NCBI GenBank assembly: GCA_038231275.1 | Contig: JBBRLQ010000012.1 | Coordinates: 32,001 to 96,000 of the forward strand | DNA: 64,000 nucleotides | Direction of reading: 5' to 3' | Source of the DNA: Polyangiales bacterium | Lineage (GTDB): Bacteria; Myxococcota_A; Polyangia; Polyangiales; Polyangiaceae | Shown here: piece after piece, positions 20,201 through 26,200 of the stretch | Layout: each line of letters opens with the position of its first letter | How positions within the stretch are numbered: the stretch's first letter is position 1 | Position numbers: made by a program

Positions 20201-23200
20201 CGACGGATTTGCAAGGGTCGCGCCCCCACGCAGCGACGCCAAGCGCGCGAGCTCGCAGGCGACGCCGAGCCCATGCGGGATCGGGCGCCTCTGCTGCGTT
20301 TCGAACGCGAGAGCTTGCGCCCCGGCGCCGGGTGTCGCACATCTTAAGGAGAGAATGTCCGACGAACCGGAGCAGGACAGCGACGTCGTCTACCTCCACA
20401 GCCCGACCGACGACGGCGACGGCGTTCGCGTCGTCCGCGCGCGTCAGGGCAAGGTGGAGATGGGCGAGGTGCGTCCCATCGCCGAGGGCAAGCCGCTCTC
20501 CGGCGAGATCGTCAGTCTTCGTCCGCGCGAGGGCTCGCCTCGGGTATGCGACGTGAAGGTCGAGTACGCGAAGACGGACGACGCAAAGCCCGCGAGCGCC
20601 TCGGGGAGCGCCGCGAAGGGCCCCGCGCAAGTCGCGACGACGACGTACCGCGACAACTGGGAGTCGATCTTCGGAAACGCCGGCCGCCGCTCGAAGAAGG
20701 CCGCCGTCCTGAATTGATCGCGCGCGTCTGGACAAACTCGTCCGTAGTGCGCACGTTGCGGAGCACTCGAGGCTCTCGGGGCGAAGTCATCTGCGCACCA
20801 AACCGCGCTGCCGCCCGCACCCTCACAACGTTTTTTCGGCCGAAACGCCGAGGCACCTTTCAGACAATTCGCATCGGTCCACGGCGACGTGCGGCTTCTC
20901 GTTCGTTCATCCGTTCGAGAAGGCGCACGACCGCCGGAATGAGCCCACGCCTTCGGCGTGACGCGCAGCCGGGGAGCCACGTTTGCTCCACGCGCCGATG
21001 CACCGTTTTCCCGCGCCCATCCGGCAAGGCCCCACAAGCAAGCTCGGAGATTGTTGGTTCGACTCCAACCGGCTGCACCGCGTTCTCGGACGCTCTCGCA
21101 CGCAGCTGTAGCCTAACGGTAAGGCACCGGCCTCTTAAGCCAAAAGCCATGGCTTTCCCACTCGGGCGTGGGCAATTCTTTTCAAAAGATCGAGATCACC
21201 GCCGCGTGGACGCCAAACGTTCGCGCGCCCGAGCCGCAGGTTAAATCGGGCACACGAACGGCGGCCGCGCGTCCCGCGGCGGGGTTCTCTCAGTTATTCT
21301 TCCCTTCCTTCGGAGGTCCCCATGAACACGAACCAGACGCGCGCGCCCCTTCCGGAGTCGCAGCTCGGGCCTGCCGAGCGGCTGCTCGATCTCGTGCTCA
21401 ACTCGTCGGCGCACCTCTGGCACAACCGGCCGGGGCTCGACGTCCGCGGTGTGTGGCACGCGGCCCGCGGCGCGAAGGTGCGCGGCACCGCCGCGAAGCC
21501 GGGCCTCTTCGTTCCGGCGGCGCGCGGCCTCTACGCGCGCCTCCTCGAGATCTACACGCTCAACGCCGATCTCATGGCGCACTTCGCGTCGTACGCGCTC
21601 CTCGAGACCGAGTGGCGCGATCTGAAGGTCGCGTGCGCCGCGCTCATGCTCGTTCAGGGCAAGAGCGGCCAGCCGATCAAGGAGGACCTTGCCAAGGGCG
21701 CCGCCGTCGCGTTCTACGACGACGACTACCGTGCGATCGGCGAGGCGATGGTCCTCTTCTACGCCAAGAAGAGCACCAAGATGCTCACGCCCAAGGGCGT
21801 GCTCCGCGTCGGGGAGCTCCTCGAGGTTCCGGAGATCGCTGCGCTGAACCGCGCCGCGGGATTCGGCGACGCGACGGGCGGCAAGGCGCCGCTCGGACGC
21901 TGGAAGCGCGCGGCCACCAAGTGGCTCGCCGCGCGCGAGAAGAACCGCGTGATGCTCGAGGGCCTGGTCCGCGCCGGCTACAAGGAGACCATCAAGAAGA
22001 TCGCCCGAAAGGCCGGCTACAAGCCGGAGACGCAGGCCTTCTTCGAGATCCTCGGTTGGAAGCAGAAGCAGGCGGACGGCGGTCACCGCACCGTCGGCCT
22101 CGGCGCCGACCTCAAGCTGGAAAAGCGCGAGCGCTTCGACGGCGTGAGCGAGGCCGAGATCTGCGAGCGCATCGAGCAAGATCGCCTGTCGTACAAGGAC
22201 GTCGTCGGGCGCCTGCCCAAGGACGTCGGGCTCACCCCGGCGATCATGGTCGCGCTCCTGCCGTCGCTCAGCGATCGCGATCTGCGCATGCTCACCCCCA
22301 CCCTCGAGGAGCTCGGGCTCATGACCGAGCCGGAGATCCGCGCGAAGTGGGAGAAGGCCATCCTCTCGTCGACCGACCAGCGCTCGCTCACCACGGCCAA
22401 GAACGTGAAGAGCAAGGCGCTCAAGGAGAAGCTCGAGGAGGCCGCCGACAACGCCGCGAAGAACGCGGTCAAGGCGGCGACCAAGGACAGCGACGTCCGC
22501 GTCATCTTCCTCGTCGACAAGTCGGGGAGCATGACGAACGCCATCGAGCAGTCGAAGGAGGCGCTCTCGCGAATCCTCGCCGGTTTCCCTGGAGAAAAGC
22601 TGCATGTTGCAACCTTCGACACGACCGGGACGGTCCTCCGCCCCAAGGCGGCGTCGCGGGCGGCGGTGCAGCACATGCTCCAGGGCATCACGGCCGGCGG
22701 CGGCACGATGCACGGCGCGGCGGTGCGCGCGCTCCACGAGGCGGGCGTGTCTTTCCCCAAAGAGAGCAAGCTCGTCGTCATCGTGGTCGGAGACGAGGCG
22801 GGCGAGACCGGCGAGCAACTGGCCCACGCCTTCCGCGCCTTCGGCTTCGACGTCGCGGCGCTCGCGCTCATGCTCCCCTCGCAGGCGGGTCGCGGCTACA
22901 CGGTCCGAAACTGCGCGACTGCGCTGGGCATCCCGTTCAGCGAGGTCACGCTCGATCAGTTCGCCGATCCGTATCAGGTGACCCGCGTCCTCACAGCCCT
23001 CCTCGAGGCGCCCAAGATGATCGCGGGCCCCGTGAAGCAGGCGGGCTGGGTGGAGAAGGTCATGAAGACCAAGCTCCTCGAATTGCCCAACTAGAATAGC
23101 GAGGAGAGAGGAACGCTTTGGCCGACTACCGAAAGTTCCTCTCCAAGGTCGAGACGAGCGTGCTCCCGTATTTCGGCGGCACGCGCGTCGACACCTCCTC

Positions 23201-26200
23201 ACGTCGCTTGCGTCTCCCGAGCGCGCTGGACGCGCCCGGCTGGTACACGTTCGAGATCAAGGGGCGTGAGGCCTTTCCGAAGGATCCGGCGGACGCGCCG
23301 GATCTCTCGGACCTACCGCTCGCGCGCGGTCACGTCGTCGGGCGCTGGCTCGTCGGCGACAACGCGGGCGCGGTGGAGATGGAGCTCTTTTCAGAAGAAG
23401 AGCCTCCGGTGCTCGCGCCATGCCGCGCGCGCGTTTGGTACGGGGGAGAGGTCCTCTTCGAGGGCCTCGACTTCGAGGGCGAAGCCGAGCTATCCGCGCG
23501 CGAAGCGCTGGAGGATGGCCGCTCCCTCGAGGGCATCAAGGGCGTCGGCGCGCCGTTACGGGCCGCGTTCGCCTACGCGGTGCTCGCACGCACGTCGCGC
23601 GAGCTCACCATCCCATTCTCTCCAAAAGAAGTACGAAAGGATCTCCTCACCATCGCTGGAACTGGGCCCGACGGCGCCGCGAGTTCGCTGCGCCGCCTCG
23701 AGCACGAGCGACGCATGTGGCGCGCGCTTCACCCCGAAGAGGCCCTCCTGCGCGGAGAGGCTCCTCCTCCCGTTCGCCACCACGGCCCCCAGCCGACGCT
23801 CGCGAACGCCGAAGAACGCGCCGACGCCGCCCTCGAAGCGGCAGGCGCGCGCCTGCTCGCCGTCCGTCGCCTCGGCGATCGCCAGCTCGAGGTTCGGTAT
23901 CGCTTCATGGACGAGCGCTTCGTCACCGTGTGCGACGCGCTCACGCTGCAGATCCACGACGCCGGCGTCTGCCTCGGTCACGGCGAAGAGCGCGGCGATC
24001 GCCTGCTCACACTCGAGAGCCTTCCGTCCGTCATCAAGGAGGCGATCGACACCGACGTCCTCGTCATCACTCGCGGCTTCGCTTGAAAGGAAGGACTCGC
24101 GCGTGAACAAATCGGCGGCCAGCTCGTCGAAGCAGAAACGTTCTCACCGAAGAAAGGCGGCATCCCATGGCGATTCTGAACATCACGTACAACGGTCTGT
24201 CGGCGGACTACCCGCTCGACATGAACTACGACCTGTCGGACGCCGACGTCCGGCGTATCGCGCTCGAGGTCGTGCGTTCGGGCGGCGTCGGCGGCCTCCA
24301 GATCGCGAACCTCGACGAGCGCGCCTTCGCGGCGCACGTGATCGACCGGTTCCAGGGCCAGGACGGTGCCCCGCGCATCTACCTGCGTCCCAAGGTCCCG
24401 TTCGGTTGAATTTCGTTTGGAACGAGTCTTTTCAGTGGAATCTACTGAAAGGATTCGTTCGAACGATTCCATTGAAAGGAGCATGCGGGTGCGGATCGTG
24501 TTCTGCGGCGTGGGCGCGCTCGGCTCGACGGCGGCGGTCCTGTGCCGAAACCTGCCTTCGACGCTGGCGTTCGTCGACTTCGATCGTGTCGAGGCGAAGA
24601 ACCTCGCGGCGCAGGCGTACGTCAAGCCGTCCATCGGGAAGAACAAGGCCGATGCGCTGAAGCTCCAGCTGCTGAATTTCTACGGCATCAAGGCGGAGGC
24701 GTTCGGCGTCCGGCTGGGCGCCGAGAACGTCGCGACGCTGCTCGGCGCCGCGGATCTGATCGTCGACGCGTTCGACAACCAGGCGAGCCGGCTCGTCCTG
24801 TCCACCTATGCGCGTGCGGCGAGAAGGGCGCTCGTGCACGGCGCGCTCTCGGGCGACGGGACGTTCGGCTTGGTCCGTTGGGACGAGCGCTTCGTGCCCG
24901 ACGCCGAGGACGAGGCGGGCCAGGCCACGTGCGAGGGCGGCGAGCACCTGCCGCTCATCGGTCTGCTTGGCGCGGCGCTCGCGCGCGCGATCCAGGATTT
25001 CGTGAAGAGCGGCGCGCGGCGCGACTCGATGGTGAGCCTCGCGGCGGTGACGCCGACCGCGTCCACGTGAGGCACGCCTCCACGTGAGGCACCCTCTACG
25101 TGAGGCGCGCGATCAAGCGCTCGGCGAGCTTGGGTCCGCGCCCCTCGTCTTCGTGCTTGAAGAACACCCACGCCTCGCCCCACGGCTGCGCGCGGATCGA
25201 ATCGGCCCACGCGGCGAGCTCGGCGTCGGTGTACTCGACCTCGCGCAGGCGCAAGTAGCCGAACGGCGCGGTGGGGACGAGCGGCGTCTTGCCCTCTTCG
25301 GTCTCGACCGCGCAGAGCGCGACGTTCTTCGCGCGAAGCGCGGCGTACACCTCGTCGTCGAACCACGACGCGTGACGGAACTCGATCGCCGCGCGCACCG
25401 ACGGCGGGAGGAGCTCGAGCAAATGCGCGAGGCGCCCGAGGTCCTTCTTGAAGTTCGGCGGGAGCTGGAAGAGGAGCGGCCCCTGCTTCGGCCCCAGCTC
25501 GCTCGCGACGCGGAGGAAATGCCCGACCGGGTCCGCGACCTCTTTCAGCCTGGAAAAATGGGTGATTCGTTGCGGTGCCTTCAAGACGAACGCGAAGTCG
25601 TCGGGCGTCTGCGCGGCCCAGCCGGAGACGACCTTGGCGAGCGGCATCCGGTAGAACGTATTATTGATCTCGACGGTGCCGAAGCGCGACGCGTAAAAGC
25701 CGAGCATCGCGTCGGCCTTGAGCTTCTCTGGGTAGAAGCTCCCCTTCCACTCTTTGTAGGCGTAGCCGCTCGTCCCGACGCGGACCTTCATGACGATTTG
25801 GCGGTGGCGCGCGGCGCGCGGCCCAGGTGCGCGAGGAGGAGCGCGTTCACCTCGTTCGGCGCGTCGATCTGCACCCAGTGCGACGCGTTGGGCAAGAACT
25901 CCACGCGCGCGTCGGGGACCCAGCGCGCGTCGGGGCGAGCCATCTCCTTGCCGAGGAACGCGTCCTGCTCTCCCCAGATCACGAGAGTGCTCGCCGGGAT
26001 CGGACGGTACGCGGGGACACGCCCGCGAGCGGCGCCCTGGAGCGCGGCGCGGTAGTAGTTGAGGGGGCCGTTCAGGTTGCGCGCGCGACGCGCGGCTTCG
26101 ACGTACTTGTCCACGTCGGCGCGGGGGTAGCCCTTGAACGTGCGCCGCAGGAAGTCGAAGTCCTTCCGCGACAACACACGCTCCGGGATTCCCGGGAGCT

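Follow-up and report, generated by a model that had tools for sequence, protein, structure and literature searches.

Bacterial Ro60 (Rsr) is a ring-plus-vWA protein whose gene lies beside that of a small RNA, YrlA, and phage copies of this system exist as well (passages of PMC4201824). In published passages on YrlA-type Y RNAs, the RNA ends form a conserved stem and the interior mimics a tRNA as a T arm, a closed acceptor stem and a D arm. The YrlA of M. smegmatis has a 7-bp acceptor stem and is processed by RNase P and acquires CCA, while in the Salmonella and M. smegmatis RNAs only the 5' strand of the stem is recognisable (passages of PMC4201824). In Bil, Bub and type II CBASS (Cap2/Cap3) operons, the gene of a small protein whose C-terminal Gly is conserved stands together with those of an E1-like enzyme and a JAB peptidase (sections of 10.1101/2023.09.26.559546, PMC11601596 and PMC10097602). 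Dense tRNA array units are described in bacteria and phages (sections of PMC4758250 and PMC12803027). A word search of the available sections of PMC8421152 and PMC4758250 returned no mention of Ro60, TROVE, Willebrand or ThiF, so that a protein and RNA module linked to tRNA arrays is undescribed in those sections.

We analyzed a locus in a stretch of 64,000 nucleotides from a Polyangiales bacterium (the whole stretch is the window below), which probably encodes a Ro60/Y RNA-type RNP of a divergent subfamily, joined to a module for ubiquitin-like activation and processing; the whole is presumably mobile and tRNA-centred. The RNA, the vWA gene and the genes that follow lie where the initial annotation had put them, with ORFs recovered at 21322-23094, 23118-24086, 24167-24409 and 24366-25070. 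As in the YrlA system, the small RNA adjoins a ring-plus-vWA protein gene, its ends form a stem and its interior resembles a tRNA with a 7-bp acceptor stem:

21009..21173, forward strand: Y-RNA-like small RNA, a closing frame round a circularly permuted tRNA-like module (model R1, 120.3 bits; alignment A3)
21010..21018, forward strand: helix 1, 5' strand of P1 (CCCGCGCCC), partner 21164-21172
21023..21039, forward strand: helix 2, 5' strand of P2 at 21023-31 (partner 21151-21159), then the conserved CCACAAGC box at 21032-39
21053..21069, forward strand: helix 3, T-arm-like hairpin (GTTGG TTCGACT CCAAC)
21070..21108, forward strand: helix 4, acceptor-like 7-bp stem with a 25-nt closing loop; 3' strand 21070-76, then ACC; 5' strand 21102-08
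21111..21125, forward strand: helix 5, D-arm-like hairpin (GCC TAACGGTAA GGC)
21128..21142, forward strand: helix 6, anticodon-arm-like hairpin with the 7-nt loop CUCUUAA (CUU at 21134-36)
21151..21183, forward strand: 3' strand of P2, conserved ACTCGG box, 3' strand of P1 and T-rich tail

The covariance model R1, whose training set includes the window copy, places the RNA at contig positions 53009-53173 with 120.3 bits. The proposal of a circularly permuted tRNA-like RNA holds on an independent set of 33 copies (alignment A3): compensatory change is found in 29 of 36 pairs, 92.5% of cells are paired compared to 33-47% in slid controls, and none of 500 shuffles reached the observed values on all five measures. 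In these copies, both-sided changes occur in six of the nine pairs of P1 and in six of the eight pairs of P2 (94.9% and 95.0% of cells paired, respectively), and in all seven pairs of the acceptor-like stem, which is followed on its 3' side by NCC in 13 of the 33. The T-arm-like hairpin has five pairs, 98.8% paired, with GGTTC.A.TCC invariant; covariation extends to 3/3 pairs of the D-arm-like and 4/4 pairs of the anticodon-arm-like hairpin, the latter with 95.6% of cells paired. Outside the helices, the box 3' of the first P2 strand has the conserved form YNACAMGC across the listed RNA units, and CACTCGGGCG is kept across the copies within the 21151..21183 region; a terminator-like site at 21157-21172 is followed by CAATTCTTTT. 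The strong covariation argues for a circularly permuted, tRNA-like module inside a pair of conserved closing helices. RNA-library contigs span one Corallococcus copy of the RNA, with DNA carry-over as a possible source.

As the initial annotation had it, Rfam overlooks the window RNA: YrlA gives no match in 20500-21500 at E<=10, where the tRNA model has a weak match at 21102-21170 (19.9 bits, E 0.3). One relative, L020, does match YrlA below its cut-off, with 38.1 bits over the full model against a required 69. The motif had been quoted as GNCGAAG; its published form is GNCGAAN0-1G (passage of PMC4201824), from which the window RNA, reading GGCAAGG, departs as claimed. Further differences from YrlA are the conservation of both stem strands, the full anticodon arm and the attachment of the module via the variable-loop side. 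The same P1/P2 frame also encloses un-permuted tRNAs, and under a strict motif scan the units occur in tandem sets of up to five. With that scan, the 168 kb upstream of the Ro-like gene yield 88 units and 2.24 Mb of background only 10, an enrichment of about 117-fold. By the same scan a unit is present at 53 of 115 loci, and another 28 of the 62 loci lacking one have a full-length match to the covariance model. The RNA accompanies the operon in other arrangements too, where it follows the E1 gene or separates the vWA gene from the 322-aa gene.

The protein genes of the window are the following:

21322..23094, forward strand: divergent Ro60-like protein, 590 aa; helical TROVE-like part at about residues 1-385, vWA domain at about 390-565
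23118..24086, forward strand: conserved 322-aa partner, no family assigned; N-terminal OB-like beta barrels, helical middle, C-terminal alpha/beta domain with invariant Cys285
24167..24409, forward strand: candidate ubiquitin-like protein, 80 aa, C-terminus RPKVPFG
24483..25070, forward strand: minimal ThiF/E1-like adenylating enzyme of 195 aa; homologues start at Met40 (24483), although the ORF is open from 24366

Pfam recognises the vWA domain alone in the 590-aa protein, with an intact MIDAS motif (D399, S401, S403, T462 and D491) whose residues are invariant. Pfam TROVE matches neither this protein nor 10 distant relatives, and its reported absence from the source genome (94% complete) was confirmed, with control genomes positive. 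The remote Ro60 relationship, proposed earlier on weak signals, gained ground from a confident AF2 model (pLDDT 89.8, pTM 0.86), for which the best 13 Foldseek matches in the PDB are all Ro60/TROVE structures (E 9e-9 to 3.6e-6). In these structural alignments, identity to the Ro60 of Thermus phage phiLo (PDB 9l5y; sections of PMC12135203) and to the TROVE crystal structure 9kop is 12-16%. When aligned by hhalign to 12 canonical Myxococcota TROVE proteins, the 590-aa protein reaches a probability of 92.0% (E 6.7e-7); of the 280 columns covered, about 195 lie upstream of the vWA domain, and of the TROVE domain the alignment takes in only the second half. VIA Z scores of whole Ro60 chains (13.8-14.7) are not above those of vWA domains alone (up to 15.0), and such values can be reached by chance with helical repeats, according to the tool's own note. 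As a further difference from 9l5y and 9kop, the N-terminal part of the model has predicted beta hairpins (residues 38-58 and 118-132). Model and sequence together support, much better than before, the reading of the 590-aa protein as a very divergent Ro60 relative of a subfamily that Pfam does not detect.

Three conserved downstream genes had been described, and all three are present in the window; relatives, however, have four. Their additional gene, between those for the 322-aa and 80-aa proteins, encodes a JAB peptidase (Pfam Prok-JAB, 31.6 bits against a cut-off of 25) with a visible H-x-H-x7-S-x2-D motif. It is missing from the source genome's locus, so the window copy may be decaying. 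The PFG end reported for the 80-aa protein is indeed invariant, within the fuller form RPKVPFG: among 26 sequences L73-R74-P75 and V77-P78-F79-G80 never vary and K76 changes once, to R. Homologues in relatives carry variable tails of 1-30 residues after it. All 44 tailed homologues belong to loci with JAB, and at the six loci without a detected JAB all six end at the Gly. The 80-aa protein matches nothing in Pfam or the PDB, and its profile has no detectable similarity to ThiS/MoaD (0.3%); the precursor-like C-terminus and the adjoining JAB gene give contextual support for a candidate Ubl. The E1, described earlier as MoeB/Uba4-like, is clearly assignable by its sequence to the ThiF family (Pfam ThiF, 69.5 bits against 28.1; PDB Uba4 and MoeB at about 2e-7), and its GxGxxG motif, D95-x-F-D-N and Cys150 are invariant.

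These partners, the 322-aa protein, JAB, Ubl and E1, set the system apart from bacterial Ro60 (Rsr). Unlike Bil, Bub and CBASS, it has a minimal E1 and a candidate Ubl with a PFG end and no match among Ubl families, and it is tied to a Ro60-like RNP and tRNA arrays; neither PADLOC nor a Foldseek search with the 322-aa model, which gave no UBC-like match, found a recognisable E2. The JAB gene in relatives, the invariant RPKVPFG, the restriction of tails to loci that have JAB, the un-permuted tRNAs in the frame and its tandem arrays, the frequent flanking tRNA arrays, and the recurrence of the five-gene operon with its RNA in a second clade and in phage Rctr197k are new here.

In relatives and in a phage, the module often has dense arrays of about 17-30 tRNA genes at its side. 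The adjacency noted earlier for some relatives is borne out by arrays of 9-26 tRNA genes at 11 loci (L001, L020, L022, L036, L057, L112, L115, L117, L118, L131 and L133). The 31 tRNAs reported beside the phage homologue were also found: in the 197-kb phage Rctr197k the Ro-like gene is preceded by 30 annotated tRNA genes, and a further one lies downstream within the examined stretch. This phage also has homologues of the C-terminal domain of the 322-aa protein, JAB, Ubl and E1, as well as a full-length match to the RNA covariance model (57.8 bits). The source genome also has an array, of 20 tRNA genes spanning about 2.4 kb, but it lies about 172 kb away from the module, where the same contig ends.

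We propose that 21009-21173 yields a small RNA; sequence comparison shows that its ends form P1 and P2 round a complete permuted module (T arm, closed 7-bp acceptor stem, D arm and anticodon arm). The 590-aa protein, in the predicted fold a TROVE-like ring plus a vWA domain that carries the MIDAS, may bind the P1/P2 frame in the way that Ro60 grips the stem of Y RNAs, and would thereby display the tRNA-like module. The displayed module could draw in tRNA-recognising proteins, perhaps including the OB-fold 322-aa protein. The 80-aa protein would be a Ubl precursor, whose tail the JAB of relatives presumably cuts after the invariant Gly; in the source genome, where JAB is lost, the gene already stops at this Gly. 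The ThiF-like E1 would adenylate the Gly, and our preferred guess is that the invariant Cys285 of the 322-aa protein then accepts the Ubl, which goes on to a target within or close to the RNP. The set accompanies large tRNA arrays both in bacteria and in the 197-kb phage, from which we infer that it is mobile and serves a tRNA-centred conflict, protecting, checking or replacing tRNAs under attack. Against this, the neighbours of the locus in the window are ordinary chromosomal genes that bear no mobile-element marks.

The same RNP might be joined to a sulfur-carrier system in place of a conjugation system, a reading that we consider unlikely. JAB trims the sulfur carrier in the CysO/Mec+ and QbsE/QbsD systems, and the short cleavable tail beside a JAB gene resembles the QbsE/QbsD pattern. 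Here the adenylated C-terminal Gly would become a thiocarboxylate, with JAB trimming the carrier, and the sulfur would thiolate the tRNA-like RNA or array tRNAs or go into a small molecule. The best named matches of the E1 are sulfur-carrier activators (MoeB, Uba4 and the ThiS adenylyltransferase ThiF model NCBIfam PRK08644, E 2.2e-21 but below that model's cut-off), and the missing E2 and tRNA-rich setting fit as well. However, PADLOC also matches the E1 to the E1 portions of CBASS Cap2-like E1-E2 proteins (2.2e-13), the operon has no conserved gene for a rhodanese, cysteine desulfurase or PP-loop thiolase, and the 80-aa protein, dissimilar to ThiS/MoaD, ends in PFG rather than GG. That Cap2 resemblance suits host anti-phage defence, in which the Ro-like RNP would sense foreign or damaged tRNA-like RNAs, the Ubl cascade would mark phage or host proteins, and the phage copy would be a captured counter-measure. 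Ubl/E1/JAB sets are known in defence (sections of 10.1101/2023.09.26.559546 and PMC10097602), and the distribution is patchy with high conservation: the 590-aa protein occurs in 19 of 151 family genomes, as first counted, and 12 of 89 genera, at 65-91% identity. We rate this as improbable, given that the E1 is the sole PADLOC match among the five operon proteins, no effector (nuclease, pore) is conserved within the operon, and no defence-island neighbours are seen in the window; the full set beside a phage's own tRNA array fits a phage-beneficial role better.

The RNA elements could also be mere tRNA genes, tRNA pseudogenes or array remnants in terminator-like inverted repeats, next to an unrelated, non-binding vWA protein. 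Some units do hold ordinary tRNAs according to ARAGORN and Rfam (e.g. L020 5722-5792, 60.3 bits), the P1 helix and T-run resemble an intrinsic terminator, and partial matches of the covariance model land on tandem tRNAs. We nonetheless find this very hard to credit: the frame combines conserved unpaired boxes (ACACGC, CACUCGG) with covarying helices, and it encloses permuted modules and short hairpins, which cannot be tRNAs. The enriched units go along with the operon in different phyla and in a phage, and at varied operon positions, and the best structural matches of the protein are all Y RNA-binding Ro60 proteins.

In favour of the preferred Ro60-type RNP, of the 82 loci that extend at least 4.5 kb downstream, 81 have the 322-aa gene, 71 JAB, 58 E1, 57 Ubl and 50 all four. 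The Ubl gene lies farther downstream in 3/3 Corallococcus/Archangium genomes checked, followed by a ThiF gene in the one inspected. The five-gene operon and RNA recur in the second clade at 37-41% identity, across several phyla: its carriers are MAGs labelled Schekmanbacteria, Gemmatimonadota, Verrucomicrobiales and Leptonemataceae, and also Spirillospora and Paraliomyxa. Many soil bacteria, and one large phage, carry this gene set.

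The module lies on one strand, where a non-coding stretch and four open reading frames follow one another in the same direction.

Features of the module (window coordinates)
~21007-21185, + strand: non-coding stretch that holds the RNA (from the open reading frame listing and the sequence)
21322-23094, + strand: 590-aa open reading frame, the Ro-like protein; vWA families only in Pfam (VWA_2, residues 394-491)
23118-24086, + strand: 322-aa open reading frame; nothing in Pfam
24167-24409, + strand: 80-aa open reading frame with the C-terminus PFG; nothing in Pfam
24366-25070, + strand: ThiF-like open reading frame, Pfam ThiF; homologues begin at Met40 (24483)

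The flanking genes on both sides are ordinary chromosomal ones, encoding a trypsin-like protease, an SDR protein, a GNAT protein, urease parts, a DUF72 protein, a hydrolase, HMG-CoA synthase and an ECF sigma factor, and the gene annotation of the window reveals no integrase or phage marks around the module. The ordinary metabolic neighbours include a fused urease gamma/beta subunit gene (12591-13256, +) and a UreG-type GTPase gene (16396-17127, +). No sigma-70-like promoter was recognized between positions 20600 and 21400 of the window, which holds one tRNA gene.

The initial annotation had regarded the 590-aa protein as a remote Ro60 relative that Pfam TROVE (PF05731) fails to detect, a kinship then resting on weak signals. 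Pfam indeed returns only the vWA families for this protein and no TROVE match in 10 distant relatives, and a six-frame search of the whole genome finds no TROVE, with positive results in control genomes. The kinship itself now stands on firmer ground. An AlphaFold2 model built on a 47-sequence alignment (pLDDT 89.8, pTM 0.86) predicts a helical-repeat ring followed by a vWA domain, the arrangement of the Ro60/TROVE fold. Its best 13 Foldseek matches in the PDB are all Ro60/TROVE structures (E 9.0e-9 to 3.6e-6; entries 9kop, 2i91, 9nfa, 1yvp, 9l5y, 1yvr, 9nep, 9nen, 9nf8 and 2nvo), and lone vWA domains rank after them; 9l5y is the Ro60 of Thermus phage phiLo and 2nvo the Rsr protein of D. radiodurans. 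Comparison with 12 canonical TROVE proteins from Myxococcota genomes (TROVE carriers make up 14 of the 201 genomes sampled) raises the hhalign probability from the earlier 54.8% to 92.0% (E 6.7e-7, 280 columns). The alignment joins residues 195-494 of the query to residues 151-476 of Ro60, with about 195 columns in TROVE proper and the first ~190 residues unaligned. A sequence-profile search of the PDB recovers the vWA part of Ro60 (E 0.0063) together with a weak collinear TROVE match (E 0.19). The MIDAS residues D399, S401, S403 and T462 are invariant among the 47 sequences, and D491 is nearly so. From the Foldseek matches to Ro60, the alignment to TROVE proteins and the invariant MIDAS, we conclude that the 590-aa protein is, as judged by sequence and predicted structure, a divergent member of the Ro60 family.

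The family is large and its sequence strongly conserved: of the candidates scored, at least 1,231 proteins reach E<=1e-3, and the 590-aa protein also matches 406 cluster representatives at the 50%-identity level. The 120 matches listed are all at least 68% identical to it, and because none of these 120 bears TROVE in the precomputed Pfam annotation, TROVE-based surveys would miss what amounts to a large hidden subfamily of Ro60. The distribution is patchy but the sequence itself is conserved (65-91% identity): 19 of the 151 genomes of the window's family possess the gene, as previously noted, and they represent 12 of 89 genera. A further 64 loci come from a second clade, whose identity is 37-41%, with metagenome-assembled genomes labelled Schekmanbacteria, Gemmatimonadota, Verrucomicrobiales, Leptonemataceae, Methylobacter and Rickettsiales, and with the cultured Paraliomyxa miuraensis and Spirillospora sp. 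All five genes are found again in this clade, and so is the RNA, often in another place, behind the E1 gene or between the Ro-like and 322-aa genes. The Spirillospora copy consists of the frame, that is the two closing helices P1 and P2, with a short insert.

Rfam YrlA has no match at E<=10 in positions 20500-21500 of the window, in agreement with the earlier statement that Rfam misses this RNA, and the Rfam tRNA model gives a weak match only (19.9 bits, E 0.3, at 21102-21170). The minimum free energy fold of the window RNA alone is as stable as that of shuffled sequences (z 0.14), so the structure rests on covariation and not on energy. We recruited 66 loci with the 590-aa protein from species-representative genomes, nearly all of them Myxococcota, and read their upstream regions. 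The relatives share the frame, whose 5' strand ends in a conserved ..AAGSCC-YACACGC box and whose 3' strand reads ..CGYGGCTT..CACTCGGGCGCG and is followed by a T-run. The variable insert between the strands is of three kinds: a permuted tRNA-like module composed of T arm, closed acceptor stem, D arm and anticodon arm, which is the type of the window; an un-permuted tRNA called by both ARAGORN and Rfam (for example at 5722-5792 of L020, a locus from a relative, 60.3 bits); or a short hairpin alone. In two loci of the second clade (L098:6580-6900 and L099:6580-6880), the direct, that is un-permuted, units read by eye have the acceptor stem cut to ~3-4 pairs, and the ACACGC box seems to replace the 5' strand of the acceptor.

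An alignment of 33 permuted-type units from 23 sources yields six helices with 36 pairs in RNAalifold, and 29 of these pairs display compensatory changes. Across the 33 units, 92.5% of the cells pair on the named structure, compared with 32.7-46.5% when the 3' partners are slid; the consensus derives from the same alignment and is thereby somewhat favoured, but the size of this gap and 291 doubly changed cells far exceed that bias. None of 500 shuffles reaches the observed value on any of five measures. The acceptor stem of the window copy has 7 bp and is followed by ACC, and NCC follows the stem in 13 of the 33 copies. A 7-nt anticodon-like loop is kept, with CUU as the commonest anticodon (6/33 copies, including that of the window). 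Covariation thus demonstrates a family of predicted structured RNAs that combine a Y RNA-like frame with tRNA-like cargo. They extend the tRNA-like RNAs beyond YrlA with a full anticodon arm, two topologies and tandem sets.

The order of arms, with a closing stem around the T arm, a closed acceptor stem and a D arm, is the same in the covarying consensus as in YrlA (Rfam RF02553), and Chen et al. 2014 (PMC4201824) describe the arms in this order. The L020 copy aligns across the whole Rfam YrlA model in the same arrangement at 38.1 bits. As the initial annotation had remarked of the relatives, this falls under the gathering score of 69 bits, which the window copy does not reach either. Unlike YrlA, the RNAs described here retain the 7-nt anticodon-like loop. 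At the GNCGAAN0-1G motif of the 5' strand, part of which falls within the covarying helix P2, several relatives have GACGAAG or GTCGAAG and the window RNA has GGCAAGG, a deviation already recorded. Outside the window, contig C2 of the same genome contains a second permuted tRNA-like element (C2:377425-377528, equal to L162:1501-1604) in which a T arm, an acceptor stem of 7 bp with ACC behind it, a D arm and an anticodon arm bearing CGU can be recognized. The element is devoid of the P1/P2 frame boxes and is not called as a tRNA by ARAGORN; the covariance model built here gives it 44 bits (over model positions 38-121), and Rfam YrlA gives it 36.7 bits.

The RNA is closely tied to the Ro-like gene. 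A strict scan for motif plus pairing finds 88 units in the 168 kb that lie within 1.5 kb upstream of the gene, at 53 of 115 loci, as against 10 units in 2.24 Mb of other sequence, and many loci have 2-5 units in tandem. A covariance model of the 33 copies matches over its full length in 28 more loci, out of the 62 that the strict scan missed, which brings the loci with a detectable unit to 81 of 115. RNA-library contigs from two studies span the Corallococcus copy, and one of 2,722 nt starts within the RNA unit (L008:5825); such contigs can show neither transcription nor ends nor strand, may stem from DNA carry-over, and are neutral as to expression. In the locus of the closest relative (L004:5800-5960), the spacer from the RNA to the Ro-like gene includes a long imperfect run of CCGAC/GCCGAC repeats that the window does not have.

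Searches with tblastn across the loci show that the 322-aa gene almost always follows the Ro-like gene, with the 80-aa and E1 genes also frequent. These three were the conserved downstream genes of the initial annotation, and they hold; the set is incomplete, as relatives possess a fourth gene that is absent here. In the gap between the 322-aa and 80-aa genes, relatives encode a protein of ~120 aa that has the exact JAMM motif HSHPxGPxxFSxED and scores 31.6 bits with Pfam Prok-JAB (cut-off 25). This JAB gene is present in 51 of the 66 loci. A single tblastn query with JAB finds none in the window or elsewhere in the genome, and only a piece of it is left in L004. Of the 82 loci where the Ro-like gene is complete and the downstream flank measures 4.5 kb or more, 81 have the 322-aa gene, 71 JAB, 58 E1 and 57 the candidate ubiquitin-like (Ubl) 80-aa gene, and 50 have all four. 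Twenty loci seemed to carry just the 322-aa and JAB genes. This appearance is at least partly an effect of flank length, because the Ubl gene lies farther along in all three such genomes checked (two Corallococcus, one Archangium), 7.7 kb past the Ro-like gene in C. coralloides. One of the three, examined further, has a ThiF gene after Ubl, behind unrelated genes on the opposite strand.

The C-terminus of the 80-aa protein is as invariant as described before: 26 sequences end in ...LRPKVPFG, with one K-to-R change. In relatives, unrelated tails of 0-30 residues follow the glycine. All 44 proteins with a tail longer than zero belong to loci with JAB, and all six from loci where no JAB was detected, that of the window among them, stop exactly at the glycine, in counts where the loci are related to one another and the single tblastn query may miss divergent JABs. 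A conserved C-terminal glycine, exposed or followed by a variable tail, thus occurs next to E1 and JAB genes, and the tails show the pattern of a putative Ubl or sulfur-carrier precursor trimmed by the JAB peptidase. In the window copy, where JAB is absent, the glycine end is ready-made; this copy may function unprocessed, or it may be in decay. The putative E1 matches Pfam ThiF at 69.5 bits (cut-off 28.1), and its GxGxxG, its DFDRVE box, its D95-x-F-D-N (nucleotide- and Mg-binding motifs) and Cys150 are invariant. The protein of 322 aa yields a confident model (pLDDT 89.4) without a Foldseek match at E<=1e-3 and without a UBC-like fold, in a search that barely probed the C-terminal domain. 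Pfam gives nothing consistent across 31 members, and a profile search of the PDB, PADLOC, NCBIfam and an Atlas search of residues 225-322 return nothing. The C-terminal domain has an invariant Cys285 and is the part of the protein kept in a phage (53% identity over residues 256-319). By comparison with the UBC topology, the Cys285 domain might have an E2-like role.

These comparisons demonstrate a conserved operon of five predicted genes that includes JAB, a precursor-like small protein and E1, and its gene link between a Ro60 subfamily and Ubl, E1 and JAB peptidase is tight and new to the literature searched. By analogy of gene content, JAB probably matures the small protein and E1 probably adenylates it. 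Two fates are then conceivable. Sulfur carrying is suggested by the E1, which resembles activators of sulfur carriers: ThiF of PRK08644 (E 2.2e-21, below the cut-off of that model), MoeB and Uba4, the latter two as originally proposed. The small protein itself has no such likeness: hhalign against ThiS/MoaD gives 0.3%, Pfam has no match, and a six-frame ThiS search of the genome finds four other places, the 80-aa gene not among them. Its PDB profile search returns designed repeat proteins only (E>=0.039) and its Atlas search just its own unnamed clusters. The E1 also resembles the E1 part of Cap2-like proteins in PADLOC. In the Bil, Bub and type II CBASS models it is this E1 part that matches, the four other operon proteins have no match, and no E2 or E1-E2 fusion as in these systems is recognized. 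We prefer conjugation of the small protein to other proteins, possibly through Cys285 of the 322-aa protein, to sulfur carrying.

A tRNA array unit is defined as at least 20 tRNA genes at a density of at least 2 per kb (PMC4758250). At least 11 loci have an array of 9-26 tRNA genes beside the module; L001, with 24 genes, falls within this definition, and L020, L022 and L036, with 17-19 genes, are near it. No tRNA array lies next to the module in the window. The genome has 20 tRNA genes in ~2.4 kb on the same contig (C12:226768-229170, equal to L163:686-3087), ~172 kb downstream of the module and ending within ~220 bases of the contig end, and the RNA model has weak partial hits on them, as expected for tandem tRNAs. 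In phage Rctr197k (KX853510.1), the Ro-like gene (36-38% identity) follows directly after an array; the phage homologue had been placed beside 31 tRNAs, and the array upstream contains 30 annotated tRNA genes. Homologues of the 322-aa C-terminal domain, JAB, Ubl and E1 spread across the next 9 kb. Neither the eye nor a regular expression finds the frame motif beside the phage gene, and the covariance model places the RNA ~8.6 kb downstream, where frame and permuted module match over the full length (L067:19495-19671, 57.8 bits). The phage Ro-like gene (L067:8980-10929) is annotated as a misc_feature, 'similar to conserved hypothetical protein', and not as a CDS; in tblastn a single unbroken alignment nevertheless covers 98% of the query. 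The loci demonstrate, in terms of predicted genes, a recurrent company of tRNA arrays, in bacteria and in a phage.

Conservation of Ro60/Y RNA particles extends from bacteria to humans, yet what they do in bacteria is known for a few species only. We infer that the Ro-like protein binds the RNA frame, that the tRNA module so displayed recruits tRNA-handling proteins, and that the system serves a tRNA-centred conflict, to the possible benefit of either the phage or the host. A bolder and on balance unlikely proposal takes the ring and frame, the Ubl cascade and the tRNA arrays together as a phage-spread 'tRNA rescue' machine against anticodon nucleases. The ring and the P1/P2 frame would dock tRNAs that work as such and are more than mimics; the direct-type units would supply tRNAs of the array style, and permuted units, cut by RNase P and completed with CCA, would become two-piece chargeable tRNAs tethered to the ring. 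Modification of the particle or of its clients would fall to a dedicated cascade made up of JAB, Ubl, E1 and the Cys285 protein. If true, this would be the first functional link of a Ro60/Y RNA particle to ubiquitin-like modification. Should the genetic link be functional, the cultured Corallococcus, Paraliomyxa and Spirillospora would offer a tractable system that could show what tRNA-mimicking Y RNAs recruit and why protein cofactors accompany tRNA arrays.

In the full-text literature searched, whose coverage is incomplete, we found no description of a TROVE-negative subfamily, of anticodon-arm-bearing RNAs in two topologies, of a Ro-like subfamily tied to Ubl, E1 and JAB, or of a Ro-like module tied to tRNA arrays. 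Work by Burroughs and Aravind (2016) on RNA repair systems may bear on this claim of novelty. Bacterial Ro60, YrlA-type tRNA mimics and phage copies are already known (PMC4201824; PMC12135203).

Two open reading frames in the surroundings of the modules are worth recording. A 341-aa frame in the window (26702-27727, +) has a signal-like start, a high content of Cys, Gly and Thr, a repeated C-x-x-x-C spacing and no Pfam match. At L022:4681-5211, a 176-aa frame lies between the tRNA genes and the Y-like units, and its start (..SWYFPHKVIRWEDAV..) may resemble that of phage-type HNH endonucleases.
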